Positions 257 through 56,834 are shown, counted from the stretch's first letter. The stretch is 56,834 bases of DNA from Candidatus Zhuqueibacterota bacterium (GCA_016783825.1 JADHVV010000005.1:1-56834), one strand, 5' to 3'. A program made the numbers and translations. Notes: generated by a model from the sequence alone, not told the origin.

Positions 257-406
257 ACATGGCGACAAGGTGAGTGGGAGACAAGGTGAGAGGGAGAATT
301 TCAATCACGATATAAATTCTCTTTCTCCAATTCACCCTTTCTCCCACTCTCCCACTCTCACTCTCTCCCCTTCTCCATGTCTCCCACACACGCCATGCTC
401 CATGCG
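257..406. repeat. Nested tandem-unit palindrome (GGGAGA/TCTCCC arms inside CATGGCG/CGCCATG arms)
   Basis: Purine-rich left arm and complementary pyrimidine-rich right arm downstream of uxaC. Confidence 0.6.
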
Positions 407-407
407 A

Positions 408-1829
408 TCAAAGCTTATACGCCTGTTTCACCAAATCATAAGCCAGTGCCCTGCTCATAACCCGGGCTTCTTCCATATCAACAATATGACGAGTCACCAG
501 TCCGGCGAGAAAATTGCTATCTACACGGCGTGATAAATCATGCCTGGCTGGAATTGATGGGAAGGCGCGGGTATCATCGTTAAAGCCAACGGTGTTAAAT
601 ATGCCGGCTGTTTCCGTAACCATTTGTCGGTATCTGGTCATTCCTTCAATGGAGTCGTGAAACCACCAGGCAGGGCCTAACTTCATCGCAGGATAATGAC
701 CGGCTAACGGGGCTAATTCCCTGGTATAAGAATCTTCGTCTAAAGTAAAAACGATCAGGGTTAATCTCGGATCATTGCCATATTTATTTAATAAAGCGCG
801 CAAATTTCTTGTGTATTCTGTTTGTAAAGGAATGTCACATCCTTTGTCAGCGCCGAATTTATCAAAAACAGGTTGATTGTGATTCCGATATGATCCAGGG
901 TGAATTTGCATGACCAGCCCATCTTCAATGCTCAAACGAGCCATTTCCATTAAAATATTTCCGGTGAATTGCGCCTGATCCGCCCCATTTGTTTCACCTT
1001 TCAGCGCTTTTTGAAATAATTTATTTGCATCTGATTTTGTTAATTCAAAAGTATAAGGACTGGTTACTCCCTGGTCAGTGGAAACCGCGCCCATTGATTT
1101 AAAAAATTCTCTTCGATTTTCAAACGCTTTAATGAAATCATCATAAGAATTAATTTCAAAACCACATCTTTCGCTTAATAGGTCTATATTTTCTTTCCAC
1201 CCTTTAGCGGAGATGTTGACGACGCCATCCGGTCGGAAACAGGTAATTACCTTTCCTCCCCATCCGGAGTCTTTGATTGTTTTGTGGAATCGTAAATCAT
1301 CTTCTGCGCCTTCGGTTGTGGTAAGCGCTTCGATATTAAAACGATCGAACATGGCACGGGGTAAAAATTCCGGGGATTTCAGTTTTTCATCTATTTGATC
1401 ATAAATGGATTGTGCAGTCTCCCCGGATAATTTTTCCTTTATTCCAAAAACAGCAGAAAACACGTGGCTTAACCAGGCCCAGGTCGGCGTGCCATAAAAA
1501 AGGTAAAAATTATCGCCAAAAGTTTGCCAGATCTTTCGGAAATCAGTTTCCATAGGGCTGCCGTCCTTTGTTGGAATGCCCAGCGATTCCAGGCTAATGC
1601 CCTGTGAATAAAGCATCCGGAAAATGTAGTGATCCGGGATAAGTATTAATTCAGTCGGATTAGGAAAAGGCTTGTTGTCCGCTAATATTGATGGATCAAC
1701 GTGACCATGGGGACTGACGATTGGTAAGTCTTTTACACCCTCATACAATTCTCTGGCAATTTTGCGAATTGCCAGATCTGGGTCAAAGAATCTATTCTCA
1801 TTGACTACTAAGGTATTTGATTGTGACAA
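408..1829 (-). CDS. uxaC: Glucuronate (uronate) isomerase
   Basis: 473 aa; SPHGH metal motif, PDHY, AWWFHD, FNDDTRAF..RHD. Confidence 0.95.
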   Translation of the reverse strand: MSQSNTLVVNENRFFDPDLAIRKIARELYEGVKDLPIVSPHGHVDPSILADNKPFPNPTELILIPDHYIFRMLYSQGISLESLGIPTKDGSPMETDFRKIWQTFGDNFYLFYGTPTWAWLSHVFSAVFGIKEKLSGETAQSIYDQIDEKLKSPEFLPRAMFDRFNIEALTTTEGAEDDLRFHKTIKDSGWGGKVITCFRPDGVVNISAKGWKENIDLLSERCGFEINSYDDFIKAFENRREFFKSMGAVSTDQGVTSPYTFELTKSDANKLFQKALKGETNGADQAQFTGNILMEMARLSIEDGLVMQIHPGSYRNHNQPVFDKFGADKGCDIPLQTEYTRNLRALLNKYGNDPRLTLIVFTLDEDSYTRELAPLAGHYPAMKLGPAWWFHDSIEGMTRYRQMVTETAGIFNTVGFNDDTRAFPSIPARHDLSRRVDSNFLAGLVTRHIVDMEEARVMSRALAYDLVKQAYKL

Positions 1830-2005
1830 ATTTTTCCTCTTCTAACATTACTAATTCTGAACCACGAATCCGCCAAAAAGACGGCGGATCTACCTTCGGC
1901 AGATTTTTATTATGAATTGATTCGCCGAAGGAGAACTTTCAGTTTCACTAATTGATTTATTTTTTCTTCGTAAAATTAGTATAATTCGTGATTGTTGCTT
2001 TTTAT

Positions 2006-2170
2006 GTAAGAGATCAGTGAACGCCTTCCAATGTATCATTATTAATAATTAATTCCATGGTTGTCATGCCCGAATGTTTCTATCGGGCATCCAGTTCGTT
2101 ATCATACAATGGATTCCCGCTAAAAACGTGCGGGAATGACAAAGTCAGACGGACTTCAGTGAACTCTTAC
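2006..2170. mobile_element. MITE-like element carrying a GTCAT...ATGAC REP-like palindrome
   Basis: TIRs GTAAGAGATCAGTGAA / TTCAGTGAACTCTTAC; 8-bp flanking direct repeat CTTTTTAT / CTATTTAT; inner palindrome 2063-2140. Confidence 0.7.
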
Positions 2171-2190
2171 CTATTTATCAAGTGATCTAA

Positions 2191-5464: not shown

Positions 5465-5510
5465 TTAATTACCCTTTCGGTTATTTAGTATTTATCCTGA
5501 ATTATTCTTT

Positions 5511-5642
5511 CGCCACAAAGACACAAAGGCACAAAGTTTTAAAAAACAATGAATAAGAATATTATTCATAAATTATTAAAATAAAAATGAGTTTAAAATT
5601 TAATTAGCTTCTATCTTATTGTTTCTTCGTGTCTTGGTGGCA
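5511..5642. repeat. Tandem-unit palindrome (GCCACAAAGACACAAAG / CTTCGTGTCTTGGTGGC family)
   Basis: Same arms recur at about 26808-26957, 32927-32943 and 45616-45783. Confidence 0.7.
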
Positions 5643-5658
5643 AGAATTCATGAATAAT

Positions 5659-7705: not shown

Positions 7706-7812
7706 CTAACTCTTATTCCTCTCAAATCAGTTGGCTGCTCATCCGTTGGTTTTTCCATTCAAATCTTCAATTTCACCTAGCGAACGTTTACACCAACAAA
7801 AATTTCATGATT

Positions 7813-12814: not shown

Positions 12815-12990
12815 CCTGGACAAGCCAGAACCAATAAGCTAACTGGGTAATTAGTTTATTGGGTAATTGGGAATTCATAATATTGATTAATCTATTATTA
12901 CCCAATTTCCTTATTAGCAAATTACCTTTCAAGGGCTCTATTCTAATTTAGTAACTTTTTGCCCATTGTTTAACGATTTCACTTTGTAGG
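12815..12990. repeat. CCTGGACAAGCCAGAACC-headed element with GGTAATT/AATTACC arms
   Basis: Similar copies at about 13854-14079 and 35644-35856; same head with different (CGCAAAG) arms at 15842. Confidence 0.75.
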
Positions 12991-13853: not shown

Positions 13854-14079
13854 CCAGGACAAGCCAAAACTAATCAGTTGAGAATGACTTTGTAAACGAA
13901 TTGAGTCTTTTGTAACGCTCTAAAAGGTAACTTGGTAATTAGTTTATCGGGTAATAAGGAATTCATAATGCTGATAATTTTTTATTACCCAATTTCCTTA
14001 TTACCAAATTACTTTTCAAATGTTCTTTTTTTGTATTCCGTATGCTTATGCCCAATGTTAAGGAATTTGTCTGTTCAAG
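13854..14079. repeat. Second copy of the CCTGGACAAG/GGTAATT element
   Basis: CCAGGACAAGCC head, GGTAATTAGTTTATCGGGTAAT...ATTACCCAATT arms, GCCCAATGTT tail. Confidence 0.75.
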
Positions 14080-15841: not shown

Positions 15842-16022
15842 CCTGGACAAGCCAGAACCGACTGAAAAAGAATCTCACGCAAAGTCGCGAAGCCGCAAAG
15901 AAATCGCAAAGTTTTTTTAGATTTTCTTTGCGTAATCTTTGCGTTTCTGCGGCTTTGCGTGAATTTTTTTTTTTGCCCATTGTGCAAGAAAATAACTTTT
16001 TAGATACTAATACTGATCCAAG
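15842..16022. repeat. CCTGGACAAG-headed element with CGCAAAG/CTTTGCG arms
   Basis: TCACGCAAAGTCGCGAAGCCGCAAAG ... CTTTGCGTTTCTGCGGCTTTGCGTGA; GCCCATTGT tail. Confidence 0.7.
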
Positions 16023-16178: not shown

Positions 16179-16489
16179 TGTATGACGTTATGAAACCTTA
16201 TTCTTGTTTTTTAAACCTTAGTAGTAAAAAACCAAGCCCCATTTTTACCTTATTACCTTATTCTTCTGCAAAGTCTCATGGTAATGTTTTATGAATTGTT
16301 CATAGTCATCAGCAAACGTTTCTTTTTTGTGATTCTCAGGTTGATTAAGCATACTGAATACAAAATGGGTGTCTAAGTTGTTATATTCTACTTTCATATC
16401 AAATAAGGTAATAAGGTTTACGGATTTAGTTGATTTTCATATTCTACTAAGGTTTTAAAGATAAAAATAAGGTTTTTATTAACTCAACA
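16179..16489. mobile_element. Gene-less mini-transposon with TGT...ACA ends and repeated ACCTTA sites (Tn7/Mu-like end architecture)
   Basis: About 80-bp imperfect inverted arms, four ACCTTA units on each side; no target-site duplication. Confidence 0.5.
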
Positions 16490-19954: not shown

Positions 19955-20060
19955 GTTTGAAGTGCCTAAATTGCCTAAAGTGCACTAAAGTACTTTTCTA
20001 TTATTAACTTTAGACTTGTACTTTAGTGCACTTTAAACTTTAGAGCACTTTAGATCACTT
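19955..20060. repeat. Tandem-unit palindrome (GAAGTGCCTAAAG family)
   Basis: Second copy at about 22638-22713. Confidence 0.7.
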
Positions 20061-20810: not shown

Positions 20811-20825
20811 TTACACCCTCCTGAA

Positions 20826-20952
20826 TTCTGGATACTTGCTACTGGATGCTTGATTCTGGATACTGGAAGCCCGATTCAAGATGCTGGATGGAATTGGTAA
20901 AGCAAGTATCGAGCATCAAGAAACAAGCATCGAGTATCCAGCATCAAGTATC
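20826..20952. repeat. Tandem-unit palindrome (CTGGATAC/GTATCCAG family)
   Basis: Second partial copy at about 28970-29025. Confidence 0.7.
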
Positions 20953-22598: not shown

Positions 22599-22711
22599 AA
22601 TTTATTTTAATTCCTAGATTACGGTGTACTTATGACAGAAGTTTGAAGTGCCAAAAGTGCCTAAAGTGAGATAAAGAAATAATTCTTTAGGCACTTCAAA
22701 CTTTAGGCACT

Positions 22712-24934
22712 TTAGCTCACTTTATTAACTTTAACTTTTACATCCTTCCACGCCTGCCCTTTGCCCGATGGGTCGATAGAAACTGGAATAACAAAATTGG
22801 GATTAGTGCCGTTGCCATCCTTTTCCCACCAGATAAATTCTGTATCCGGGTCTTCACTTTTAAACTTTTTCGATTGAGCAATTCTTCCGTATTCCCAATG
22901 TCCCAATCCTTTGGAAATGGCAATCGCTCCCGGATAAATACCCTGTGTAATGTGCGCTTTGATAACAATTTTTCCAATTTCAGATTCCAACATTACATAG
23001 TCGCCCTCTGCAATTCTCAATCGTCGGGCAGTTTTGGCATTTATTAAAGCTTTATTAGTATGATTGATTTCAGCCAACCATTTTAAATTGGTCAAATCCT
23101 GACGCATCACATTTGTGCTGTACGAAATTAAAAAAAGTTCATTTTTAGAAACGTTAATATGTTCCGTAATTGGTTCATATTTCGGCAAACCATTTGACCC
23201 GGCAATTTCAAATTTTCTTGAGCGAGTAGCGAATCGCTGTTTTTTATAAAGCTCATATTCTGGATTGGCATTTTTATCGTACCAGATACCCTGTTTTTTC
23301 AATTTATTAAATTGTTTCTCATCAGATAAACCAGGTATTTGGGCAACTGATTGTTTAATAAAATCTTCGACACTTTCATAATTCATCGAATTGCTAATGC
23401 TCTCCCCCATTCTCCGCGACAATTTAAGAAAAACATCATTAAGGGATAAAGCTTGCCCGTGCGGTTTTATTACTGGTTGCGCCAGCGAAACAAAGGGAAC
23501 CATTTCAAAGGATGGCGTTGAATCCAAATCCCAGCTTTCTACAAAAGTCGCTGCTGGAAGAATCAAATCTGCCAGCGCCGCTGTTTCACTTTTTACGGTA
23601 TCCATCACCACAGTAAACGGCATCAGGCTTTCGTCTTTCATCACTTGCTGGGTGAAATTGCAGTCCGGATATTCATAAACAGGATTATTTTTATAAGCGA
23701 AATATAAATCGACCTTTTGTTTTTCTTTCTTAATCCTCTCGAAAAATTGGACGGTTGACGGTTCGTTTTCATTAATTTCTATTGGAGAAAAATCGTTTAA
23801 CTGATAAGTTCGGGCAAGGCAGACACCGCCTTTTTTATCAATATTTCCCACCAGCGCATTGAGCAGCATAATGCTCCGTTCAGTCTCAAAACCGTTAACG
23901 TGCTGGGCAACACCTGAGCCTGAAAAAGCAACGGCGGGTCTGTTAGCGGCAAACTCGATGGCAATTCGTTCGATAGTGGCTGCGTCGATGGCGCTGATTT
24001 TTGCCGCTTTTTCGATAGTGTATTGAGACAGGTGCGACTTCAGTTGGGAAATAGGAATGTTTGTCCAGCGGCTGATAAATTCAGCGTCATATAAACCTTT
24101 CTGCACGATAACATTCGCCATTGCCAGCGCCACAATACCATCAGTTCCGGGTTTTATTGGAATCCACTCATCACTTTTACCGGCGGTATTGGATAACAGC
24201 GGGTCCATGGTAATCAATTTTGCATAATTATTTATTCTTGCTTCAGCCAGGCGTTGATTAAAACTTACAAAATAGGAATGGGACTCAAACGGATTGCTGC
24301 CGAAATTTAGAAAATATCTACAATTTTCAGCATCGATTATTTCTCTTTCTTCGCCCCAAATTGATTTTTGAGCAGTAGTTTTATTTAAGTCATTTAAAGC
24401 AGATGAGTTTAATATTGTCGCATTTTCAAAATTATTCAAAAACCTGCGCGCTAAACCGCGGTAATTTTGAGTATCAGTATGAAAGACAAATTCATGGTTA
24501 CGGTTTTCATTATTAATCGTTTGCAGGCGGTTGGAAATTTCAGTTAATGCTTGTTCCCAGCTAATTTTTTTCCATTTTCCCTCTCCCCGAGCTCCAACAC
24601 GTTTCAGTGGATGAAGCAATCTATCCGGGTCATAAACCTGGTTTACGCCGGCAATTCCCCGCGCACAAATTTTACCCTGGTTATTAATATGGTGGGGATT
24701 CCCTTGAATAGCCGCTAAATCTTCATATCTTAAAAAACCAATTACGCCGCATCTGTTTGGACAAAGATTACAAATTGTTGGAATGCCTTTACGAAACTTG
24801 CTGGTAAACATTGATACATTTCTGCCCCGCATGCCAACAATGGGAATCACTCCTCCAAACGAAGCTCCGAACGAGATTGCGGTTGCGCCTAATGTTCCTA
24901 TTTTTAAAAATTTTCGACGATTTATTTCTTTCAT
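22712..24934 (-). CDS. Tat-exported molybdopterin oxidoreductase (PsrA/TtrA/ArrA-like, DMSO reductase family)
   Basis: NRRKFLK; CNLCPNRC...C; YDPDRL..PLKR; PGTDG; SETA..AD.ILP. Confidence 0.9.
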   Translation of the reverse strand: MKEINRRKFLKIGTLGATAISFGASFGGVIPIVGMRGRNVSMFTSKFRKGIPTICNLCPNRCGVIGFLRYEDLAAIQGNPHHINNQGKICARGIAGVNQVYDPDRLLHPLKRVGARGEGKWKKISWEQALTEISNRLQTINNENRNHEFVFHTDTQNYRGLARRFLNNFENATILNSSALNDLNKTTAQKSIWGEEREIIDAENCRYFLNFGSNPFESHSYFVSFNQRLAEARINNYAKLITMDPLLSNTAGKSDEWIPIKPGTDGIVALAMANVIVQKGLYDAEFISRWTNIPISQLKSHLSQYTIEKAAKISAIDAATIERIAIEFAANRPAVAFSGSGVAQHVNGFETERSIMLLNALVGNIDKKGGVCLARTYQLNDFSPIEINENEPSTVQFFERIKKEKQKVDLYFAYKNNPVYEYPDCNFTQQVMKDESLMPFTVVMDTVKSETAALADLILPAATFVESWDLDSTPSFEMVPFVSLAQPVIKPHGQALSLNDVFLKLSRRMGESISNSMNYESVEDFIKQSVAQIPGLSDEKQFNKLKKQGIWYDKNANPEYELYKKQRFATRSRKFEIAGSNGLPKYEPITEHINVSKNELFLISYSTNVMRQDLTNLKWLAEINHTNKALINAKTARRLRIAEGDYVMLESEIGKIVIKAHITQGIYPGAIAISKGLGHWEYGRIAQSKKFKSEDPDTEFIWWEKDGNGTNPNFVIPVSIDPSGKGQAWKDVKVKVNKVS

Positions 24935-26504: not shown

Positions 26505-26706
26505 CTAAAAGCACCAAATTACAAGTACCAAATTTCAAATAAAACTCAAATTCAAAATTTCAATGACCGAAACATTTTTTTTATACACATAAATAAAAAA
26601 ATTCTTACACCGTAAAGGCGCAAAGTTCTAAAAAATAATTTGTTTTGAATTTTGAATTTTGGTTTTTGTTATTTATTTGTAATTTGTTTTTTGTTATTTG
26701 TAATTT
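26505..26706. repeat. Tandem-unit palindrome (CAAAT/ATTTG heptad arms)
   Basis: AAATTACAAGTACCAAATTTCAAAT ... ATTTGTAATTTG. Confidence 0.6.
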
Positions 26707-28948: not shown

Positions 28949-29060
28949 ATTTAATACCTTTTAAAAAAACGATGCTTGATTCTGGATACTTGTTTCTGGA
29001 TATTTTTTACCCGCATCGAGTATCTATGAAATTAATGAAATTTTGACAAAGTAGATACAA

Positions 29061-32898: not shown

Positions 32899-32970
32899 CT
32901 ATTCCTCTTTTCGTTATAAAAGAATTGCCACGAAGACACGAAGTTCAATAACTTAATCTTACGAATCAAT

Positions 32971-33092
32971 GTCATTCCGGCAATCCTGTACAGTTACATT
33001 ATAAAAAAAAACAAGGAAATACAGACTGTGCTTTTAGCCGGAATCTCTTGTATTTATTAAGGAGATTCCCGCTAAAAACATGCGGGAATGAC
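32971..33092. repeat. REP-like GTCATTCC...GGAATGAC element with a 47-bp insert in its first loop
   Basis: Insert 32985-33031 is an inverted copy of 18132-18175. Confidence 0.75.
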
Positions 33093-33126
33093 AGCCGTAG
33101 TGTGACACTCATTCGGTGTACGATGC

Positions 33127-33653: not shown

Positions 33654-33782
33654 AAATTTTATTTATTTTGAAGGAGTATTGGATTAATGGAGTTTTGCAT
33701 ATTAAAATCTCACTCTATTCACAATACTCCAATAATCCATCACTCTATTTCTCCCCGCCAAAAAAATTAGATTTTATAAAAG

Positions 33783-35643: not shown

Positions 35644-35856
35644 TCTGGACGAGCCAGTTCAAATTAGATGAAAAAACTAAGTAAATGAAGTGAGTGTTTT
35701 ATACCAGTCAAAAAGGTAATTTGGTAATTAGTTTATTGGGTAATTAGGAATTCATAATGCTGATAAATTTTATATTACCAAATTTCCCAATTACCTTTCA
35801 AATGCTTTTATTTTATTCAGTATTTTATTTGGCTCGATTATAAAATGTCCCCCGGT
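35644..35856. repeat. Third copy of the CTGGAC-headed GGTAATT element
   Basis: GGTAATTAGTTTATTGGGTAATT...ATTACCAAATTTCCCAATTACC. Confidence 0.7.
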
Positions 35857-37442: not shown

Positions 37443-37562
37443 AAACTTGTTTTTATTTTAAGTAAGAAGTTTAGTTTTTTTGCATGGCGCATAGTGCAAG
37501 GCGCATGGCGTTTGGTTTAAAATACATCCCTACTGTGCGCCAAGCCCTCTGCGCCATGCCCA

Positions 37563-38792: not shown

Positions 38793-38988
38793 AGTTTTTT
38801 GGTATATTTATGCCCTATGGGCTCCATGGTTCATTATTTGATGTTTTAAAAGGTCAAGGTTAAGATCGAGATTGAGAAAAAAAGTAATCTTAATTTCTTC
38901 TTGATCTCGACCTTGACCTTTTCTGTTTTCAAAATCAATTCGAGTATTTCATTTTAATACAACGATTTACATAAAATGGGAAGATGAA

Positions 38989-40952: not shown

Positions 40953-41192
40953 TCATGTTCTCCTAACTATTCCTTTATTCTTTGTTTTTCTCTTTTTGTA
41001 AAACTAATGTACCAAACCCGCTAGAGGTAAATTCAAAAGTAGCAGTCGCTAGTGGCAGTAGCAGTGGGATCACAGTAACTAGAACTCTTAAAAAACTGCT
41101 TCTGCTACTGCAACTGCTACTTATCAGGTTTACAGTTACTTTTTACCTAAGTTGTCGGATGTTACATTTTAACCCATAACAAGTATATATTA

Positions 41193-43621: not shown

Positions 43622-43940
43622 ATATTCGTTAAGGGTTAAAATGTAACAATCATCTAAAATATTTCTTTTGACTGTTATTATCTGTTACCATAAATGCATG
43701 GCGCAAAGAGCATGGCGCATGGCGTAAAATATGCGTTTAGCACCATGCTCTATGCGCCTTGCTTTTCTTGACAGGCCTCTTTACTTAAGAAAAGGAATGT
43801 TTTATATGTTACAAAATAAACCTCAACGAGTATAATATCAAATTATCTGAATCTTTTTATTTTATACTACATCTAATTGATTTGAATTTAAAAACCTTTT
43901 TTTTATAAACTGGAACAATTAATTTCGGAGACTTTTATCA

Positions 43941-44342: not shown

Positions 44343-44475
44343 TTGATTCAGTTCAAAAAAAATCTAAACCTCGAATTACACTAATTTCACTGATTATTTC
44401 TTTTTAATTCGTGCAATTCGTGTAAATTAGTGGTTTATCAGTGAACTTATTATTTAATGGAGGATTGTTTAAGAA

Positions 44476-44685: not shown

Positions 44686-44887
44686 AAACAATAAAGCAGT
44701 TTGCTTTAAATTTGATTTGATAGGAATGTTATTATTATCTTTTTAAAAATTTTAAAATTAATCATCCGGCATTATTGAAAAGCAGCAGTTGTAGTAGCAG
44801 GAAAAATTTTGACGTACGATTATTACTGCCGCTGCTTCTGCTACTTGCAACACACTATGCTGGGAATTCTAAATATATGGAGGTATC

Positions 44888-45475: not shown

Positions 45476-45599
45476 AGTCATTGCGACAAATTAAGAATCA
45501 GCATTAAAAGGCAAAATGAATTATTGGCATAATAATCATTTTGCCTTTTTTTTTGTCAAATTATTTTGACTTCAATCATTTTGACTTTGAATTTTTTAA

Positions 45600-45812
45600 T
45601 CCAAATAATGCAATAGCCACGAAGACACGAAGGTTTTAATACCCGAAGGGTGCACAAAGAATTAAATTATAATTAGTTATGAATACATATTTAGCAAACT
45701 TTTTTCATTTTTTTATACATCAACTTTACAACAGAACTTATGTTTTTCCTTTGTGTTTCTTGGTGGCTTTGTGTCTTTGTGGCAACTCTTTTTTTCTACT
45801 GCATTATCTGGG
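45600..45812. mobile_element. MITE, same TIR family as 26777-26973
   Basis: TCCAAATAATGCAATAG / CTACTGCATTATCTGGG; TTTAA TSD. Confidence 0.8.
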
Positions 45813-45963
45813 TTTAAGTAACATTACATTTGTAGCTAATATTCTCCCGCAGAAATAAAAAAACACTTGCTTAATGTAAATTTATTTTTAAATTATAGGC
45901 TTACAAGCATATTTAAAATAAATTGGCTGCAAATGAATTATTGCAAACAAAAGGCATTTATAA

Positions 45964-48315: not shown

Positions 48316-48389
48316 TTGATGGGAGATTTTTGGGAGTATTTTAATTGTGATGGTTACCTTGAAAAACAAATCCAATCCGCCGCGGCGGA

Positions 48390-49254
48390 AAACAACCCAA
48401 CGGATAAAAAATTAAAGATGTGAAATGGAATTATTACATAAAGATTTGTCGCATGATTTGATCGGGTGTTTCTTTCATGTGCATAATACATTAGGAGTGG
48501 GATTTGATGAAAAAACTTACCATAATGCTTTGGAGTACCACTTGGGAAAATGTGGGATAAATCATTTTTCAAGGGAGAGAAAAGCACTTTATCATCGCGG
48601 CTATCAGGTGAGGTCGTTTGAAACAGATTTTGTAATTTCAGGAAAGATAATTTTAGAATTAAAAGCTATTCAATCCCGCTTTATTCAAGCAAATTATGTA
48701 CAAATTCTTTCGGAGTTGAAATTATGGAAAATGCAATTGGGATTGCTTGTTAATTTTGGTTTACAAAAAGTTATTATTGAAAGAATACCCTTTTCAGAAA
48801 AACCAAAAACGATTTATGAAAACTATGATCATATCAAAGATAATATTGATGAGAATGATAGAAAAATATTGGCAGCGGTTCGTGACAGTATTCTTTATGT
48901 TTTCGAGGTTCATGGTTTGGGTTATGGCGGCGCTCTCTATCGTAAATTGATCGAAACAGAACTTGAATTTAAGAAACTAAATTATCAGAAAAAAATTCCT
49001 ATCTCAGTGAAATACGAGGGTGAAGTAATATCAGAATTCAAAATGAAACCAATGGCAGTAGAGAATTGAATTATCTGTGCCATAAATGCACTCGGGGATA
49101 AAATTGATTTTTATGACATTGCAAAAATCAAATCTTACTTAAGAGTGTTAGGCTTACAAATTGGTATTATCGTTAATTTTGGAAAAAGCAAATTAGAAAT
49201 AAGAGCTATTTCTATCTAATATTCAAAAAAAATCTTTTATCCGTTGGGTTGTTT
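48390..49254. mobile_element. GxxExxY-carrying unit bounded by perfect 20-bp inverted repeats
   Basis: AAACAACCCAACGGATAAAA (48390-48409) / TTTTATCCGTTGGGTTGTTT (49235-49254). Confidence 0.7.
48425..49219 (+). pseudogene. Tandem two-domain GxxExxY (PD-(D/E)xK-like) protein with in-frame TGA at 49067
   Basis: GFDEKTY, ELKA, VNFG; the second domain continues after the TGA (IICAINAL...SYL...GIIVNFG) to TAA at 49219. Confidence 0.8.
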
Positions 49255-49337
49255 CTATCCGTTGGTTTTGCCTATAACTTCCAATATTTTAATCAATTAA
49301 ATATCACAGAACAAAAACAGTTAACCCGGAGACCACA

Positions 49338-49682: not shown

Positions 49683-49763
49683 ATTTATAATTTGAAAATT
49701 TTTTAATTGACTATAATTGTTTTTATTACTATCTTTATCTTTTAAAATTTCGCACAGAATTTC

Positions 49764-49893
49764 ATTAATGACTCTGTTGATTTAGTCAATTTTTTGGATT
49801 TGAACTACACTATATAGTTGCACACAAGATTATGCAATATAATATATTGACAATTTGAATGTTATAAGGCATAAAATCAACAGAGTCATTAAT
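49764..49893. mobile_element. MITE-like element with perfect 20-bp inverted ends
   Basis: ATTAATGACTCTGTTGATTT / AAATCAACAGAGTCATTAAT. Confidence 0.65.
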
Positions 49894-49937
49894 ATTTAAA
49901 ATCAGTTATTATTTGCATAGAGGAGAGGCACCCGATA

Positions 49938-50909
49938 GTGTTAGAAAAAATTTGTCTGCCAATCAAGAAAGAATTAGAGGAACTCGAACAGGAATTTTCA
50001 TCAATTATAGAAACAGACGTTAAACTCATCCAGGATATTTTTTCTTATGTAATTTCTAATAAGGGTAAACGGTTACGCCCGATACTCTTATTATTATGTA
50101 GTGGCTTAAAAGGAAAATCCACTGAAATATCATTGAAAACTGCTATGATCGTTGAGTTATTGCACTCCGCCACCTTAATTCATGATGATGTGGTGGATAA
50201 CTCAAATTTGAGAAGAGGTAATCCTTCAGTCAACTCAATTTGGGAAAACAAGATATCTGTTCTGATTGGCGATTTTTTATTTGCTCACATTTTTGGCAGT
50301 TTGGTGGGAATGAAGGACAACCGGCTGATTAAAATCATTGCGGAAGTAACTTCACAAATGAGCCAGGGGGAACTGCTCCAAATGGAGCGGGTACAAGATT
50401 TTCAAATGGATGAAGAAACTTACATGAAGTTAATTTCTCGTAAAACAGCCTCGCTTTTAGCAGCCACCTGTCAAATTGGCGCCATTACATCATCAGTTGA
50501 TAATGAAACAAAACACATTGAAAACATGAGGATGTTTGGAGAAAATCTTGGTATCGCATTTCAGATAAAAGATGATTTATTAGATTTTTATGGAAGTCAG
50601 GACGACCTGGGAAAGCCGATTGGAAAAGATTTAATTGAAAATATCATCACTCTGCCTGTTTTATACAGTCTGAAAAACACAGATGAAGACACCCGGGAAA
50701 AAATGCTCTCAATTCTTGAAAATGGCAAAGAAGACGAGATGCAAACCATCATTGAATTTGTAAAAAAATCAGGCGGTCTTAATTATGCCGAAAAGAAAGC
50801 AAATTTTTATATCAAGAGTGCATTAGATTGTTTGGACAACTATCCCCCATCTTTATACAAAGAATCACTTATTCTTTTATCAGAATACATTACTGCACGG
50901 AATAAATAG
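49938..50909 (+). CDS. ispB: Polyprenyl diphosphate synthase
   Basis: GKRLRP, LIHDDVVD...RRG, KTA, FQIKDDLLD. Confidence 0.88.
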   Translation: MLEKICLPIKKELEELEQEFSSIIETDVKLIQDIFSYVISNKGKRLRPILLLLCSGLKGKSTEISLKTAMIVELLHSATLIHDDVVDNSNLRRGNPSVNSIWENKISVLIGDFLFAHIFGSLVGMKDNRLIKIIAEVTSQMSQGELLQMERVQDFQMDEETYMKLISRKTASLLAATCQIGAITSSVDNETKHIENMRMFGENLGIAFQIKDDLLDFYGSQDDLGKPIGKDLIENIITLPVLYSLKNTDEDTREKMLSILENGKEDEMQTIIEFVKKSGGLNYAEKKANFYIKSALDCLDNYPPSLYKESLILLSEYITARNK

Positions 50910-50912
50910 TTT

Positions 50913-51920
50913 ATGAGAAAAATCCCCCGGTTCGTTGTAATAATTTTAATATTTATAAGTTGTTCATCCTCCCAAAAATTTAATCCGGTGGAACAGACAA
51001 GAATTTTAATGGACACTTTTGTCCAGGTTCAAATTTTCGACCAGGACAAACCGGAAGAAGAACTTAAAAGAATAATCGAAGCAACTTTTCAGCGTATAGA
51101 AGAGATTGATAGTATTACAAACAATTACAACGACTCAAGTTTGATTGCGTTTATCAATCGTAATGCCGGTTTAAAGTCAGTGGTGTTGGACAGTATTTTA
51201 GAATACATCATTCAAACAAGTGAAAAAATATCAGAAGAATCCAATGGTTTGTTTGATATCACCATTGGCAGCATCAAACAGTTATGGAATTTTTCTTCTG
51301 ATAACCACCGGATACCAAAATCCGATGAAATTGAAAAGAAACTTAACGATGTAAATTATCAACTCATCAAACTAAAAAATCATAAGATTAAATTTCTTTC
51401 ACCCGGGATCGAAATTGATTTAGGCGCCATTGCCAAAGGATTTGCTATTGATGAAGCAATCCGGGTTTTAAAGAAAAACAATATTACAGATGCAATGGTA
51501 AATGCCGGGGGTGATTTGCGGGCAATTTGCAGTGAATTAACCAGAGGGAAAAGAAAGGTGTGGATCAGGCATCCCAGAATTGAAAATCGCCGCTTTGGTT
51601 ATTTTCAAATGGATAACGGCAGTGTTGCCACATCAGGAGATTATGAACGATTTTTTTTCCAGGATTCAATTCGGTACCATCACATTTTAAATCCCGGAAC
51701 AGGCTATCCAGCCAACGAATGTGTTAGTGTTACTGTCCAAACAGAAGAGGCAATTTACGCTGATGGGTTGTCAACCGCGATATTTGTTTTGGGTCCGAAA
51801 ATGGGAATGGAATTAGTTAAAAAATTAACCGGCGTTGAGGCTGTTATTCTTTTCCTGCGCAATGGAGAACTGGATTGGATTGTTTCAAGTGGTTTAAAAA
51901 ATAGCTTTACTAAACCTTAA
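50913..51920 (+). CDS. apbE: FAD:protein FMN transferase
   Basis: FDITIG, DLGAIAKG, NAGGD, ATSGDYER, HHILNP. Confidence 0.93.
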   Translation: MRKIPRFVVIILIFISCSSSQKFNPVEQTRILMDTFVQVQIFDQDKPEEELKRIIEATFQRIEEIDSITNNYNDSSLIAFINRNAGLKSVVLDSILEYIIQTSEKISEESNGLFDITIGSIKQLWNFSSDNHRIPKSDEIEKKLNDVNYQLIKLKNHKIKFLSPGIEIDLGAIAKGFAIDEAIRVLKKNNITDAMVNAGGDLRAICSELTRGKRKVWIRHPRIENRRFGYFQMDNGSVATSGDYERFFFQDSIRYHHILNPGTGYPANECVSVTVQTEEAIYADGLSTAIFVLGPKMGMELVKKLTGVEAVILFLRNGELDWIVSSGLKNSFTKP

Positions 51921-51937
51921 AGGTTTAGTAAAGCTAA

Positions 51938-52089
51938 TTCTATTTTGTCAGATTAGAAAAATTACCAAAAAGTGTCATTCCGGCACGTTTTTTTGCCGGA
52001 ATCTCCTGCTAAATTCTAACGAGATTCCGGTATTCCGCTTCGCTTCAACCGGAATGACAAACGAATTGTGGTAATGTGACAAAGTAGAA
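51938..52089. mobile_element. MITE with 4-bp TSD carrying a REP-like palindrome
   Basis: TTCTATTTTGTCA / TGACAAAGTAGAA; CTAA on both flanks; inner element 51974-52058; solo end TGACAAAGTAGA at 29044. Confidence 0.7.
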
Positions 52090-52185
52090 CTAATATGCCA
52101 TAAATAACTCATTCTCAAAATTGTGATTAACTAAGATTTTTTTGAACATCAACCGTGATTTATGATTATAACGGAGACGATAATT

Positions 52186-53121
52186 ATGCCAAGAACTTTA
52201 GTAACAGGTGGAGCCGGATTTTTAGGCTCTCACATTTGTGAATATCTTCTGAATAAAGGTCACCAGGTTATTGCAATAGATAATCTGCTTACTGGCTCTA
52301 TCAAAAATATTGAACCGTTGCAATGTGACAATTTTAAATTCATCAAACAAGATGTTACCGAATATTTATACATTGGAGGAGAAATTGATTACATTCTCCA
52401 TTTTGCTTCTCCAGCAAGTCCATTAGATTATTTAGAACTGCCAATACAAACATTGAAAGTTGGCGCCCTGGGGACTCATAAAGCGCTTGGATTGGCATTG
52501 TCAAAAGGAGCACGGTTTCTATTAGCGTCCACTTCTGAAATTTATGGAGATCCATTAATTCACCCGCAGAGTGAAGACTATTGGGGAAATGTAAATCCTG
52601 TTGGTCCACGAGGAGTTTATGATGAAGCAAAACGTTATGGAGAAGCATTAACCATGGCATATCACAGGTACCATAATGTTGATGCAAAAATTGTAAGGAT
52701 TTTCAATACGTATGGTCCAAGGATGCGTCCTAAAGACGGCAGGGCTATTCCAACTTTTATTCCCCAGGCGTTAAAGAATGAACCGATAACTATTTTTGGT
52801 GATGGTTCTCAAACCCGCAGCTTTTGTTATGTATCCGACCTGGTTGAAGGTCTTTACCGATTAATTGTGTCTGACACGAATGAACCCGTTAATATTGGCA
52901 ATCCAATTGAAATGACCATTAAAGAGATGGCAGAAACTGTTATAAAAATTTTAGGAAGCACAAGTCAACTAATCTATAAAGATTTACCAGTTGATGATCC
53001 CAAAATAAGACAGCCAAATATTAGCAGGGCAAAAGAAATATTAGACTGGGAACCAAAAATTGACTTTGAAGAGGGCATAACAAAAACGATTGAGTGGTTC
53101 AAAACACAACAATTAGATTGA
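52186..53121 (+). CDS. UDP-glucuronate decarboxylase (UXS-like SDR)
   Basis: [38 protein letters not shown]. Confidence 0.9.
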
Positions 53122-53122
53122 T

Positions 53123-54205
53123 ATGAGAGATGATTCATCAACAAAACCACCTCAAAAAATTCTGCTAATTCGTTTAAGTTCAATTGGTGACATATTATTA
53201 ACAACGCCTGTTATCAGGGTTTTGAAATTAACTTTTCCCAACTGTACAATTGATTTTGTGGTCAAAAATCAATTTGCTGAATTATTAGAAAATCATCCAT
53301 CGCTGAACCGGTTGTACAAATTAGAGAAAGGAAACAATAACCAAACATTAAAAAAAATTAAGCGCCAAATAAAAAATAATAATTACGATCTTATTGTTGA
53401 TCTTCACAAGAATTTTCGCAGCTATTGTTTGACTTTTCGAGTCGGGGCAAAAAAGATTGTACGATACACAAAATTTGTATTCCGCCGATTTTTATTCGTC
53501 AAACTAAAGATCAATTTATTCAAACAAATTATTCCCATTTTTGAGCGTTATTTTTTGGCCCTTGTTCCGTTTAACATCCAATACGATGATTCAGGATTGG
53601 AAATATATTTTAATAAACAAACCGAAAAAAAAATAAAAACAACTTATGAACATTTTATAAATAATCAGGATGATATTTTTATCGGCATTGCCCCGGGCGC
53701 CAGTTTCGCAACCAAACGGTGGACTATTGAGGGCTTCCAAAATGTGATCACTTATTTTATTGAGCAGCAAAATGTTAAAATCATCCTTTTTGGTAATAAG
53801 CTTGACAGGGAACTTATTGAATCATTACACATAACAAAAAATCAAAATATATTAAATAGCGCAGGAAATCTTTCCATTTCAGAAACAGGTGTATTGATGG
53901 ATCGATGCCACGTTGTTCTGACAAATGACAGTGGTCTATTGCATTTGGCATCGGCGCTAAAAAAACCGGTTGTCGCCATCTTTGGAAGTACAACTGAAGA
54001 ACTTGGATTTTTTCCATCAACTACGAAAAATATTGTAATACAAAATAGTAATTTAAAATGCCGTCCCTGTTCACATGTTGGCAGGAACAAATGTCTAAAA
54101 GATCATTTTAAATGTATGAAAGATATCACTTCAAATGAAGTAATAAAAGCGGTTGAAAAATTGGTAACCGTTCATAAAGTGAGTAATACAAATTCCAACG
54201 GATGA
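53123..54205 (+). CDS. GT9 heptosyltransferase (WaaF-like)
   Basis: IRLSSIGD, APGA...KRW, NDSG..H.A, C.PC...C. Confidence 0.88.
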   Translation: MRDDSSTKPPQKILLIRLSSIGDILLTTPVIRVLKLTFPNCTIDFVVKNQFAELLENHPSLNRLYKLEKGNNNQTLKKIKRQIKNNNYDLIVDLHKNFRSYCLTFRVGAKKIVRYTKFVFRRFLFVKLKINLFKQIIPIFERYFLALVPFNIQYDDSGLEIYFNKQTEKKIKTTYEHFINNQDDIFIGIAPGASFATKRWTIEGFQNVITYFIEQQNVKIILFGNKLDRELIESLHITKNQNILNSAGNLSISETGVLMDRCHVVLTNDSGLLHLASALKKPVVAIFGSTTEELGFFPSTTKNIVIQNSNLKCRPCSHVGRNKCLKDHFKCMKDITSNEVIKAVEKLVTVHKVSNTNSNG

Positions 54206-54358
54206 GCGGCCAACGGATACGAATTTAAATTTCTGATGAACTTAAATTGTTTTTTTACTGAATGTCTGATGATGTTTTCGTTTAATCAATTTTTTTTAAG
54301 AGGCATTCTAATAAAAAAAATTACAATAGCCAAAATCCGTTGGCTGCTCATCCGTTGG
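54195..54358. repeat. Gene-less CCAACGGAT-arm palindrome
   Basis: CCAACGGATGAGCGGCCAACGGAT / ATCCGTTGGCTGCTCATCCGTTGG; solo arm at 7726-7749. Confidence 0.8.
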
Positions 54359-54498
54359 GCATAATTTTTCTTTTTTACCAGCATGATTTTATCCACTCTT
54401 TATTTATCAGATGAACGGATACAAAAACTGATTTTAATAAAACAAAAATCACCAATAACAAATCACCATTAACCAAACACAAGGAGGTTATTCCCATT

Positions 54499-54846
54499 TT
54501 GGAATCAAAGGAATTAGCCAAATTAATTGCAGATTATTCACTTGAAAAAAAAGCTGAAGATGTTGTTTTACTAAATCTCAAAGATGTTACAACAATAACC
54601 GACTACTTCATTATCTGTTCAGCCGATTCTGATGTTCAGGTGAAAGCCATAACCGATAATATTATTGGAAGATTAAAAGAACAGAAAATAAAGGTTTGGC
54701 ACACTGAAGGTTATCAATCATTGAAATGGGTGCTTCTCGATTTAGTTGATGTTGTTGTCCATGTTTTTCAACCTGAAACACGTGATTTTTTTGGTCTGGA
54801 AAAATTATGGGGAGATGCAGAAATTACGAAAGTGGAAGATTTATGA
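54499..54846 (+). CDS. rsfS: Ribosome silencing factor
   Basis: KKAEDV, DYFIICS, W.L.D..DVVVH.F....R.F..LE.LW. Confidence 0.95.
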   Translation: MESKELAKLIADYSLEKKAEDVVLLNLKDVTTITDYFIICSADSDVQVKAITDNIIGRLKEQKIKVWHTEGYQSLKWVLLDLVDVVVHVFQPETRDFFGLEKLWGDAEITKVEDL

Positions 54847-56495
54847 AAAATATTCAGGAAATATTAGGCGAAATAATCACTAATGCGCTTCAACAACTCA
54901 ACGTTGATATTGATAAATACAAGATTATTTTGGAGCGTCCGAAACAGGAAAATCACGGCGATTGGTCTGTGAACATTGCCATGCAATTGGCTTCTGTTCT
55001 AAAAAAAGCGCCACGACAAATTGCCGAAGAAATAAAAAACAATATTCCTTTTGATTCAGGTTTGATTGAAAAAATTGAAATTGCCGGCCCGGGTTTTATA
55101 AATTTCTACCTGGGGTGGGATTATTTTCGGGAAGCGCTTGGCGCTATAATTCAGCAAAAGCAAAATTATGGTCAAACGGATTGGGGAAAAAACGAAAAAC
55201 TTCAAATAGAATTTGTAAGTGCTAATCCCACAGGGCCTCTCAATGTCGTAAGCGCCCGCGCTGCGACAATCGGCGATATTATGGTGAACCTGTATAATGC
55301 TGTCGGTTTTAAAGCTGATCGTGAAAATTATTTGAACGATTGCGGAAGACAGGTACGGCTGTTAGGTGAATCAGTCAGTAGTCATTATATGGCGATTTTC
55401 AATCGAAATGAAGAATTCCCGGAAGAAGGTTACCACGGAGAATATGTTAAAGAAATCGCCCGTGATATTGCAGATGAACATGGTAATAAGTTCATTGAGT
55501 TGGAAAAGAAAGTGCGAACTCAAAAACTGGCGGACATTGCTCTAAAAGAAATGATCCGGCTGCAAAAAGAGATCATGGACTTATATCGCGTCAATTTCCA
55601 GACCTGGTTTCCGGAAAGTAATGTGCGTGATACAAACAAACACCTTGAAGTCTTGGATTTACTTAAACAGAGGGGATACACTTTCGAACAAGATGGCGCT
55701 ACCTGGTTTCAATCGAGCAAATTTGGCGATGAAAAAGACCGGGTGTTGCTGACCCAGGAAAACGAGCCGACCTATTTTTTAGTTGATATTGCCTATCATC
55801 AGACGAAATACGAACGCGGCTACAAAAAAATGTTTGACATTTGGGGACCGGATCATCACGGTTATGTCCCCAGGATGAAAGCAGCGCTCCAGGCGCTTGG
55901 TTATCCGCAAGACAGTTTTGATGTTGAAATTGTTCAACAAGTTAATCTGTTACGCGGCGGAGAGGCGGTGAAGATGTCAAAGCGAGCAGGGCAGATCATC
56001 GAGATGAAAGAAGTCATCGATGAAGTTGGTGTTGATGCTGCCCGGTTCTTTTTTGTAAATCGAAAAAGCTCCAGCCACCTGGATTTCGATATCGACCTGG
56101 CAAAAAAAGAGACTGATGAAAATCCTGTCTATTACGTTCAATATGCCCACGCCAGGATATGCAACATAATTAAATTTGCCGGAGAGCAGGGGATAATTCC
56201 TGACGACCAGGTTGATTTGAATTTATTAGTAAAAGATGAAGAAAAACAATTGATCAAAAAACTGCTTCAATACCCGGATGTGATTTCCGGCGCAGCTCAA
56301 TCGTGGGAACCTCATCGGTTGACAACTTATCTCCAGGAACTGGCGGCAACCTTTCATCGTTTTTATCATTTTCACCGCGTTGTTTCGGAAGATAAATCGT
56401 TAAGCAAGGCACGCTTGACTTTAACAAAAGCCACTAAAATTGTGTTGGCAAATGGATTTAAGATTTTAGGAATTTCAGCGCCGGAGAATATGTAA
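54843..56495 (+). CDS. argS: Arginine--tRNA ligase
   Basis: AGPGFIN, EFVSANPTGPL, GPDHHGY, MSKR.G, YVQYAHAR; ATG overlaps the rsfS stop codon. Confidence 0.96.
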   Translation: MKNIQEILGEIITNALQQLNVDIDKYKIILERPKQENHGDWSVNIAMQLASVLKKAPRQIAEEIKNNIPFDSGLIEKIEIAGPGFINFYLGWDYFREALGAIIQQKQNYGQTDWGKNEKLQIEFVSANPTGPLNVVSARAATIGDIMVNLYNAVGFKADRENYLNDCGRQVRLLGESVSSHYMAIFNRNEEFPEEGYHGEYVKEIARDIADEHGNKFIELEKKVRTQKLADIALKEMIRLQKEIMDLYRVNFQTWFPESNVRDTNKHLEVLDLLKQRGYTFEQDGATWFQSSKFGDEKDRVLLTQENEPTYFLVDIAYHQTKYERGYKKMFDIWGPDHHGYVPRMKAALQALGYPQDSFDVEIVQQVNLLRGGEAVKMSKRAGQIIEMKEVIDEVGVDAARFFFVNRKSSSHLDFDIDLAKKETDENPVYYVQYAHARICNIIKFAGEQGIIPDDQVDLNLLVKDEEKQLIKKLLQYPDVISGAAQSWEPHRLTTYLQELAATFHRFYHFHRVVSEDKSLSKARLTLTKATKIVLANGFKILGISAPENM

Positions 56496-56499
56496 CTTT

Positions 56500-56834
56500 G
56501 GCATGGTGCATGGAGCAAAGCGCATGGCATAATATCACAATCCTATGCGCCATGCGCCTTGCTCCATGCGTTTTTATTAACAAACAGATGCTAACATATT
56601 AAATTACCATAACGCACTAAAGTGCAGGCGAAGGCTGAGGCGAAGGCGAAGGAAAAAAAAGAATATCCTTGAATCTTATACCTTGCTTCGCCTTTGCCTT
56701 CGCCTCAGCCTTTTCGTTGTAATAGTAATTGATCTTTATTAAAAAACTTTTGCATAAAAAACAAAGATTCAACTGGTAATACTATAACGCACTAAAGTGC
56801 AGGCGAAGGCTGAGGCGAAGGCGAAGGAAAAAAA
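56500..56834. repeat. CATGG-arm palindrome followed by AGGCGA-arm palindrome, whose left part is duplicated at the window end
   Basis: 56609-56659 identical to 56784-56834; CATGG family also at about 37480-37560 and 43695-43765. Confidence 0.75.

Follow-up and report, generated by a model that had tools for sequence, protein, structure and literature searches.

The intergenic palindromes in the stretch of DNA analyzed here (Candidatus Zhuqueibacterota bacterium, GCA_016783825.1 JADHVV010000005.1:1-56834; all 56,834 nt are referred to as the window) are probably gene-less, amplified members of a kind of hairpin-cassette selfish DNA, similar to the intervening sequences (IVS) of 23S rRNA, that carries either a GxxExxY gene or a gene for a four-helix-bundle (4HB) protein. 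The complete form of such an element would consist of one small gene enclosed by two inverted arms, each arm being an imperfect tandem array of a single short word; the cargo would be either a GxxExxY protein of ~125 amino acids (aa), predicted to be a minimal RecB/Cas4-like PD-(D/E)XK nuclease, or a 4HB protein of ~120 aa. The short form would retain the arms and the loop, sometimes also a tail, and would be spread over tens or hundreds of intergenic sites; it would relate to the filled form as REPINs (hairpins of repetitive extragenic palindromes, REPs) relate to the gene of a REP-associated tyrosine transposase (RAYT), or as MITEs (miniature inverted-repeat transposable elements) relate to a transposon. 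The window is one contig (C171) of a 4.54-Mb metagenome-assembled genome (MAG; G000) that consists of 260 contigs, has a G+C content of 37%, and is rated 83% complete with 2% contamination.

Filled copies of these elements occur in the same genome. Profile searches returned ten matches to TIGR04256 (nine above the cut-off), representing eight GxxExxY genes plus fragments, and six matches to TIGR02436 (five above the cut-off), representing five 4HB genes of the 23S-IVS/Avd family. Seven of the eight GxxExxY genes and four of the five 4HB genes are located directly between inverted word arms, with a different word in each case: CGCGGAG, CACGGAT, CACCGAG, CGCAAAG, CACAAAG, CACGAAT and CCAACGGAT around GxxExxY genes, and GGTCAAGG, AGGCGA, TTGGTCA and AGTGGC around 4HB genes; a terminal stem surrounds the S23p open reading frame (ORF) in four of the five 4HB genes. 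The cassette arms use the same words as the window's gene-less families, as the preliminary description, drawn from the window sequence alone, had anticipated for these two gene types; its suggestion of a similar link to GIY-YIG genes failed, with neither of the two small GIY-YIG genes in the genome bracketed by inverted arms. The window itself contains one filled GxxExxY cassette on the plus strand (48385..49275), with the left arm ...AACAACCCAACGGATAAAA, the gene at 48425-49069 (115.2 bits against TIGR04256, cut-off 35), and the right arm TTTTATCCGTTGGGTTGTTTCTATCCGTTGG. This gene is a fusion of two domains (48425-49230), the second of which extends to ~49207 and is interrupted by TGA; the second domain is intact in relatives (locus L013; contig C35 of genome G008, in a 290-aa frame), and the window gene may be decaying. 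An intact two-domain gene in another MAG, 63% identical to that of the window, has the same CCAACGGATAGAAACAACCCA.CGGAT arm. Toxin-antitoxin-looking gene pairs (C129, C32) and a DUF433-like ORF (C118) were also observed between word arms, and a long-range inverted-repeat search for new cargo returned mostly ordinary genes between two complete elements of the same family. The 4HB gene at C21:6315-6971 is flanked by long TTGGTCA/GTCATTGG heptamer arrays, a unit that we take to be the cyanobacterial STRR2 unit of the short tandemly repeated repetitive (STRR) sequences.

The match between arm and cargo extends to related genomes. Within the family, represented by 14 genomes including this one (the only one of its genus among those compared; the nearest relatives belong to other genera and share ~65-79% nucleotide identity in coding DNA), at least three inverted 7-mers were common to both 150-nt flanks at 24 of 27 GxxExxY loci and 22 of 25 4HB loci; at many loci a complete hairpin stands on either side of the gene, similar to RAYT genes with their REPs. 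At least three words of the form CRCNRAK, in gene-sense polarity, were present at 23 of the 27 GxxExxY loci vs. none of the 25 4HB loci, and in a hold-out set of 25 loci from 25 genomes of other families of the phylum, 19 passed the CRCNRAK test, compared to 12.8% of random 300-nt pieces from the same loci. The arms of the 4HB loci have periods of 7 (17 loci), 6 (4), 8 (2) and 9 nt (1), with one weak case, and are composed of many unrelated words. The gene-less families of the window, previously described as unrelated in sequence, are so only in part, since CACAAAG/CACGAAG, CGCAAAG, CACGAAT and, more loosely, CCAACGGAT have a common CRCNRAK-like core that is tied to GxxExxY genes. Of 121 genomes sampled from the phylum, 110 contained GxxExxY; the tally includes the unpublished genome G105, which contributed no locus to the analysis.

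The arm words also co-vary with the protein. From 53 GxxExxY loci, 10 were set aside (protein outside 105-150 aa, internal stops, or fewer than three words), and in the remaining 43 cassettes the word positions 2 and 7 were near-uniform within each cassette (purity 0.91 and 0.89, respectively). The nearest GxxExxY protein in another genome shared the position-2/position-7 class in 36 of the 43 cases, compared to ~11.5 expected; mean protein identity was 51% for pairs of the same class (n = 241) and 41% for pairs of different class (n = 649), a gap that was reached by 0 of 2000 label shuffles, and only one of 13 paralogue pairs within a genome shared its word class. Where arms retain their class although protein identity has fallen to 50-60%, they are under constraint. 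The preliminary description had characterized the elements as sharing architecture but not sequence; this view has to be revised, since arm words that are cargo-specific and co-vary with the GxxExxY protein indicate that sequence matters as well as structure.

These patterns bear on the possibility that the hairpins are primary, being either mobile or host-made, and are moved by another enzyme such as a Y1/RAYT transposase, with GxxExxY and 4HB genes as passengers that insert into, or are captured in, the hairpin loops. Such an arrangement would be consistent with the large excess of gene-less over filled copies, with the window families that have no resident cargo gene (listed below), with gene-less CCAACGGAT loops in which the search for gene remnants gave only matches of at most 16 nt, and with the presence of Y1 genes in the genome: of four PF01797 matches, three are intact Y1 (IS200/RAYT-like) genes (C183:16779-17234, C245:4009-4566, C204:11546-12235), and the fourth (C170) is a pseudogene ~1.2 kb from a GxxExxY cassette. 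Yet each of the three intact RAYT-like genes is flanked by its own unit-less palindromes, the classical REP/RAYT layout, and the word families are a separate system for this reason. Random capture of passengers would not explain that the cargo type predicts the arm dialect in the family and in the hold-out genomes, or that protein clades track word class while paralogues rarely share it; we consider the passenger explanation rather unlikely.

The gene-less copies are numerous and occur far above chance. In the window, element classes were assigned by reading the sequences of the 34 gaps of at least 40 nt; two-armed palindromes with imperfect tandem arms of 6-9 nt units were found in 20 gaps, the arms of the gene-bearing CCAACGGAT cassette in two, only solo arms or unit-less palindromes in eight, and nothing in four. 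An inverted-repeat scan (best ungapped repeat per gap, score of at least 12) gave hits in 20 of the 34 gaps as well, compared to a mean of 0.83 and a maximum of 3 in 30 dinucleotide-preserving shuffles. Palindromes had been noted in almost every gap; the phenomenon is real, and its frequency, about two-thirds of the 34 gaps, had been overstated. All twelve unit families that had been named are present in the places and copy numbers given, except that several of the copies are solo arms: a two-unit CCGTTGG arm of the CCAACGGAT family at 7725-7750, an AGTAGC-type arm with a conserved tail (...TGATAAATTTATTT.AAAACTTTTG) at 18025-18100, a CACAAAG-type arm at 26795-26855 (25 loci in the genome), an ACTGCC/ACTGCT arm with the same conserved tail at 30945-31010 (20 loci), and a CACGAAG arm at 32920-32960. 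Genome-wide, with crude gene calls (greedy ORFs of at least 90 aa) and a threshold score of 14, inverted repeats were detected in 693 of the 2388 intergenic regions scanned (29%; another five, longer than 1500 nt, were excluded), compared to 10 (0.4%) after shuffling, and periodic arms in 308 regions (12.9%), compared to two in shuffles. The word-type families known from the window occur in 541 of 2393 intergenic regions; all window-derived families together occupy 749 of the 2393, which amounts to 2.0% of all genomic and 10% of all intergenic bases. The window is denser in elements than the genome average.

When 35 window elements were used as BLAST queries against their own genome, each matched between 4 and 183 loci. 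The AGGCGA family is the largest with 183 loci (106 at no less than 80% coverage of the query, the measure that applies to all following counts in brackets), followed by GGTAATT with 126 (about 80), GGTCAAGG with 56 (32), CTGGATAC with 50 (12), CGCAAAG with 35 (17), CCAACGGAT with 35 (9), CACAAAG with 32 (7), and GCATGGC with 32 (16). Consensus sequences built from 75, 51 and 20 copies have sharp ends and conserved loops, and that of AGGCGA also has an asymmetric head and tail; in the CCAACGGAT family, nine copies can be aligned across the full 175 nt, including a loop of ~120 nt. Copies of a family are 70-88% identical to each other. The gene-less copies are thus amplified repeats multiplying as units and not excision scars, given family sizes of up to 183 loci and the loops and tails that are conserved within families.

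This result decides against the interpretation offered in the preliminary description, in which each gene-less palindrome is the empty footprint left by an excised gene-bearing element. Filled and empty copies do have arms in common, and one CACGAAT/CACTAAT-armed palindrome with nested inner hairpins (1865..2012) resembles the filled C16 GxxExxY cassette minus its gene: it contains the non-word 14-mer ACTTTCAGTTTCAC, which occurs 11 times in the genome, once in the C16 cassette and 10 times elsewhere (in this copy and at nine other loci). Local alignments of this gene-less copy with the C16 flanks scored 47.5 and 45, below the maximum of 52.5 for mononucleotide shuffles, and the exact 14-mer count is the single observation that supports the putative homology of the two. 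Independent scars would not share conserved loops of 12-120 nt and tails among tens of copies, nor would up to 183 copies per family be expected against one filled copy; the footprint interpretation is largely refuted by loop conservation, and we give it very little credence. Formation of each element in place, by microsatellite slippage and palindrome formation without transfer between sites, would account for variable unit numbers and imperfect arms, and variation in unit number is documented for the Coxiella IVS in the available excerpts of PMC4990558. For the families examined, this local origin is contradicted by homology of whole elements, including non-repetitive loops and tails, over dozens of loci, and by the use of the same words around homologous genes across a phylum; we find it scarcely credible.

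The elements turn over at orthologous sites. Gene order is conserved among the genera, so that operon spacers can be compared, and at six operon spacers the palindrome of the window genome was missing from every relative examined. The GCATGGC-armed palindrome between two MacB-type permease genes (37482..37559) was absent in 11 of 11 relatives, with spacers of 23-246 nt compared to 120 nt here, and the GGTCAAGG/GATCGAGA-armed palindrome between permease and ATPase genes (38848..38922) was absent in four of four, where the spacer ranges from an overlap to 122 nt compared to 196 nt. Likewise, the GTGCCTAAA-armed palindrome between the flavoprotein and Fe-S genes (19960..20060) was absent in six of six relatives (54-102 nt in four of them, compared to 183 nt), as was the CTGGATAC/CTTGAT-armed palindrome in the following spacer (20825..20952; 48-64 nt in three relatives, compared to 212 nt), which begins immediately upstream of the AGGAGG of the next gene. 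Two further spacers measure ~76 and 48 nt in genome G003 and 196 and 113 nt here. Some of these sites hold other elements in other genera: one relative has a different hairpin in the permease-permease spacer, genomes G013 and G008 have a different palindrome of ~250 nt with CCAAAT/TCAAAT words in the flavoprotein spacer, and in the spacer that follows, G013 has a CCAAAT-type and G008 a CCAACGG-type palindrome. In all lineages, the downstream gene has a conserved AGGAGG, and the insertions stand just outside it. Mobile DNA would produce such a pattern, in which different families have repeatedly and independently filled the same operon spacers. There is good support for mobility of the elements on an evolutionary time scale; they are not fixed at orthologous positions, and their residence inside co-transcribed operons, which had been noted from the window alone, is borne out by operons that are shared with relatives.

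The elements are not assembly artefacts, because independent metagenome contigs carry them unchanged and break at them. Four metagenome runs from three studies were compared over 36835-56834, and contigs that bridge elements (37093-41184 in X2; 38595-39187 in X8) are identical to the window across them. The GCATGGC palindrome at 37482..37559 is present with 0 differences in an independent metagenome contig. A run labelled as metatranscriptomic, but probably of DNA, yielded short contigs only. Contigs of X2, X8, X9 and X14 end at elements, where the summed word depth in X2 rises from ~65-75 to hundreds or thousands. Joints that skip an element were found in these runs only with sides of at most 36 letters, probably derived from other copies, and no polymorphism could be read among the strains.

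A functional role for the host would be suggested by several aspects of placement and structure. The hairpins could be retained as RNA processing or stability elements, as attenuators, or as protein-binding sites of the kind known from REPs and bacterial interspersed mosaic elements (BIMEs), with families arising by duplication and gene conversion. Elements are nearer to stop codons than to start codons (distances of zero or less in 45 of 687 cases on the stop side and 19 of 699 on the start side, genome-wide) and lie downstream of genes; divergent gaps hold only four of 129 copies compared to ~12.8 expected, and convergent gaps 14 compared to ~12.2 expected. The stems are very stable, with mean z-scores of -5.3 to -9.4 against shuffles, and the arms are better conserved than the loops in three of six families (0.78 vs. 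0.55 in GGTAATT, ~0.77 vs. 0.59 in GGTCAAGG, and 0.78-0.89 vs. 0.71 in CCAACGGAT). In Xanthomonas, most heptamer repeats are transcribed, according to the available excerpts of Rehm et al. (PMC4692102). Against these points stand the lack of orientation bias relative to co-directional neighbor genes in three families (26:33, 17:15 and 10:10), and the family alignments, in which compensatory changes showed no excess over column shuffles; RNAalifold returned no consensus structure for the GGTAATT alignment, and a fold of the consensus sequence was used instead. The related genera manage with 23-100 nt in the orthologous spacers from which the elements are absent, and the same spacer is occupied by different families in different genera.

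Nor do the elements have a canonical terminator signature, in agreement with the earlier view that they are not ordinary terminators: between 35000 and 54900, sites with a short GC-rich stem, a loop of 3-8 nt and a U-tract numbered 18 compared to 14 +/- 4 expected, and none of the 18 was a palindrome with tandem-unit arms. Among the window repeats, terminator-like flags fell only on the CTTTACTAAACC palindrome and two small hairpins in the GTCATTCC element, this palindrome and this element both being unit-less, and on two 6-pair sub-hairpins adjacent to the right arm of a CCAACGGAT element (54328-54361). Finally, elements overwrite the 3' ends of genes, and in three window genes the final codons and the stop come from an element. 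The heptosyltransferase (GT9) ends with its TGA (54203-54205) inside the first CCAACGGAT word, within the family-conserved AAATTCCAACGGATGA, of a ~175-nt element with a 116-nt loop (54190..54362; one of the nine aligned full-length copies); the apbE stop codon (51918-51920) is at the tip of a unit-less palindromic repeat (TAGCTTTACTAAACCTT; 51902..51936; repeat cluster of 30 members); and the stop codon of a molybdenum (Mo) oxidoreductase subunit (22712-22714) is overlapped by a GTGCCTAAA-armed palindrome (22639..22724). The claim that elements start at or inside stop codons is accurate for these three genes, and genome-wide it describes a minority, the 45 of 687 cases given above. Retention for a host function appears improbable to us as an explanation for the elements as a whole.

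Both cargo proteins belong to recognizable families. Among 32 GxxExxY sequences, G24, G26, E29, Y32, D68, K80, N110, F111 and R120 are invariant and E78 and Q93 near-invariant (at least 90%), forming the motifs D...ExK and QxxxY. A predicted structural model (pLDDT 94.6) had its best fold match in Cas4 SSO0001 (4ic1; E 2e-4, TMq 0.60), with lambda and alkaline exonucleases and Hjc next in rank; a sequence search against the PDB matched no solved structure. By catalytic motif, Q-x-x-x-Y motif and modelled fold, GxxExxY is a candidate RecB/Cas4-like PD-(D/E)XK nuclease; the entry for PDDEXK_3 in a survey of these nucleases reads "unknown, multiple transfers" in the available excerpt (PMC3424549). 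The 4HB protein of contig C220 matches the Xanthomonas S23p pentamer 2GSC (XCC0516) with an E value of 1.9e-15, and by profile and by this solved homologue the 4HB cargo is assigned to the 23S-IVS protein family (TIGR02436, PF05635, Avd-like). In the excerpt seen of PMC10053308, PF05635 is the Avd-like family of diversity-generating retroelements.

Together, these proteins and arms suggest how hairpin cassettes with amplified gene-less members could propagate. The cargo protein would recognize its own word array in a folded single strand or in a stem, and would promote the copying of its own cassette and, in trans, of word-matched gene-less copies. For the candidate nuclease, the route could be a cut at or beside the arms, after which copying would proceed by repair or by single-strand transfer. 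In transcripts, the long stem could be a substrate for RNase III, by analogy with the Coxiella 23S IVS, for which experiments have demonstrated this, and such processing would make residence inside operons low in cost. Target-site duplications were not found, with flank repeats of at least 5 nt in one of 75 and one of 20 copies, and direct repeats in the flanks did no better than re-paired flanks (1.32 vs. 1.66, and 1.55 vs. 1.28).

As a caveat, several observations count against the interpretation of the palindromes as gene-less members of selfish hairpin cassettes. No mobilization event has been seen: the bridged strains are identical and the skipping joints are short-sided. The copies are old, with pairwise identities of ~70-80%, and show no excess of compensatory change. 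The CRCNRAK motif was defined after viewing the first set of loci, those of the 14 genomes, and is post hoc there, although it held on the unseen set. The co-variation of protein and arm could reflect simple co-inheritance of a linked unit, and cannot by itself separate recognition from linkage because kin share labels. In this 83%-complete assembly, no resident cargo gene was found for six word families of the window (GGTAATT, GCATGGC, CTGGATAC, GTGCCTAAA, GGAGT and GGGAGACAAGG), and three resident GxxExxY cassettes (C235, C11, C170) are without a gene-less family. The largest families are linked to 4HB genes (AGGCGA, 183 loci) although the 4HB protein is not known to have any catalytic activity. 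Moreover, filled cassettes can be stable for long periods, as indicated by one cassette (L022, L032) that two genera have at the same position, its arms being identical in both.

A broader proposal can be put forward tentatively, as possible but doubtful at present: a word-programmed system of mobile elements in many phyla, in which a Cas4/RecB-like GxxExxY protein or an Avd-like 4HB protein would read its own array of 6-9 nt words in a folded single strand and propagate its cassette together with swarms of gene-less copies, in the manner of REPIN-RAYT systems but with different proteins. If true, it would also explain the 23S rRNA IVS and the heptamer repeats of cyanobacteria, Xanthomonas and Beggiatoaceae. 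To our knowledge, the GxxExxY and 4HB "23S-IVS" proteins, two very large families of tiny genes, have no assigned function, and decades of work describing heptamer repeats and intervening sequences of rRNA have not supplied a mechanism. An arm code that is specific to the cargo and changes together with the protein unites these puzzles in one testable hypothesis of protein-word recognition, with named pairs. In practical terms, every copy of these repeats is a point at which metagenome assemblies break; the repeats also give rise to spurious ORFs and overwrite the 3' ends of genes.

The gene content of the window is unremarkable, and includes uxaC, galU, dinB, a MacAB-TolC-type exporter, a polysulfide/thiosulfate-reductase-like Mo enzyme cluster, apbE, a heptosyltransferase gene and argS. 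The remaining elements are distributed over its full length. A GGGAGACAAGGTGAG-type palindrome of 8/16-nt units (261..391; 12 genome loci) abuts the uxaC stop codon; it is followed by a CACAAAG-armed palindrome with an AT-rich loop of ~90 nt (5508..5652; 32 loci), by two GGTAATT elements (12836..12928, which as a query matched 126 loci, 83 of them at no less than 80% coverage; and 13923..14016, with a consensus from 75 copies), and by a CGCAAAG-armed palindrome (15865..15972; 35 loci) that overlaps an 86-aa ORF (15727-15987). This ORF and another of 87 aa (270-533) consist mostly of palindrome sequence and are probably spurious calls; a family search of the 86-aa ORF gave no match. A two-tier palindrome (16193..16475; 32 loci) has outer AAACCTTA... 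arms, inner TTACCTTA/AATAAGGT units and a 139-nt core; in this core (16263-16401) of the two-tier AAGGTAAT palindrome, a minus-strand mini-ORF of ~48 codons was noticed by eye. Further along are a CAAATTAC/TTTGAAT-armed palindrome (26509..26706) and a short CTGGATAC-type element (28971..29035). Two small toxin-antitoxin-like gene pairs (27383-27917 and 29061-29596), one of which has a TIGR02574 addiction-module component, are located among respiratory Fe-S genes, beside the solo CACAAAG arm and the CTGGATAC element.

At 32970..33100 there is a unit-less double hairpin, GTCATTCCGG...CCGGAATC / GATTCCCGC...GCGGGAATGAC, with 178 loci in the genome; nested in the first of its loops is a small CCTGTACAG... 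element. A palindromic element of ~45 nt (CCTGTACAGTTACATT...AAGGAAATACAGACTGTGC; 83 genome loci) is nested in the loop of the GTCATTCCGG hairpin and in an AGGCGA arm; it was located in the window at 32985-33040 and 18112-18192, and downstream of the 4HB gene in C220, and has the appearance of a tiny mobile repeat whose targets are other repeats. The second half of the window contains a GGAGT/ATGGAGT-armed palindrome (33668..33752; 13 loci), a third GGTAATT element (35712..35798), an AGTAGC/AGTGGC-armed palindrome (41040..41125) whose words also flank the C137 4HB gene, just as the words of the palindrome between permease and ATPase genes also flank the C146 4HB gene, a second GCATGGC-armed palindrome (43692..43766; 32 loci), a CACGAAT/CACTAAT-armed palindrome (44370..44442; 32 loci) with words that also flank the C16 GxxExxY gene, and an AGTAGC-type palindrome (44772..44850; 19 loci). 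A CACGAAG/CACAAAG-armed palindrome stands within an outer inverted repeat (AATAATGCAATAG ... CTACTGCATTAT; 45600..45815; 47 loci), and a GCATGG-armed palindrome directly follows argS (56508..56569). The window closes with two AGGCGA elements (56605..56834; the first at 56605-56715, the second from 56785 to the window end), whose words also flank the C220 4HB gene.

A literature search returned no paper describing cassettes of this kind, with subscription journals and bioRxiv supplements outside its reach; the parts, i.e., REPIN-RAYT systems, IVS and heptamer repeats, are already known. With REP/REPIN-RAYT systems, the elements share their nature as short palindromes between genes, with copy numbers in the tens to hundreds, without target-site duplications and enriched downstream of genes, and the presence of a resident gene flanked by repeats of its own family, with several gene/repeat pairs per genome. 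They differ in that the word families flank genes for a predicted GxxExxY PD-(D/E)XK nuclease or a 4HB protein and not for a Y1 HUH (IS200/IS605-like) transposase, and in that the arms are tandem arrays of 6-9 nt words and not a single hairpin with a conserved tetranucleotide. The rRNA IVS of Coxiella, Leptospira, Brucella and Xanthomonas S23p, as far as described in the excerpts of PMC4990558, likewise have a 4HB gene in the loop of a long terminal stem and tandem heptamers in the upstream arm. These IVS are regarded as selfish elements, and RNase III cuts their stem; in Coxiella, the terminal stem measures 28 bp, GACAGAT heptamers stand in tandem upstream of the S23p ORF, and RNase III excises the IVS. 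In contrast, the cassettes and gene-less copies described here are found between protein genes, a second, unrelated cargo (GxxExxY) uses the same design, and gene-less forms are amplified; the 23S gene of this genome (C22:22266-25278) contains no inverted repeat with a score of at least 14, and a GGAGT-type palindrome is located outside of it (C22:20883-20978).

As intergenic tandem arrays of 7-nt units, the elements are also STRR-like. The STRR sequences were reportedly first described by Mazel and co-workers in 1990. Intergenic arrays of 7-nt units, with many word types, occur in several phyla: heptamer arrays of GGGAATC / GGGGAYT, some in convergent pairs, in Xanthomonas and Nostoc (PMC4692102), and TAACTGA arrays in Beggiatoaceae, cyanobacteria and Bacteroidetes (PMC4679880). 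The available excerpts of these two papers give no mechanism and do not link the repeats to flanked genes or mobile elements, whereas the arrays described here have units of 6-9 nt, are paired into hairpins, form whole-element families, and are matched to a cargo. MITEs are similarly small, non-autonomous, provided with inverted ends, derived from gene-bearing elements and sometimes nested; they differ from the present elements, for which neither target-site duplications nor a DDE transposase partner were found. The attC sites of integrons, too, are imperfect palindromes that are recognized as folded single strands and are conserved more in structure than in sequence; yet a single attC stands at one end of an integron cassette and requires IntI, whereas in the present cassettes the gene stands between two arms, and conservation of the word sequence goes along with that of the protein.

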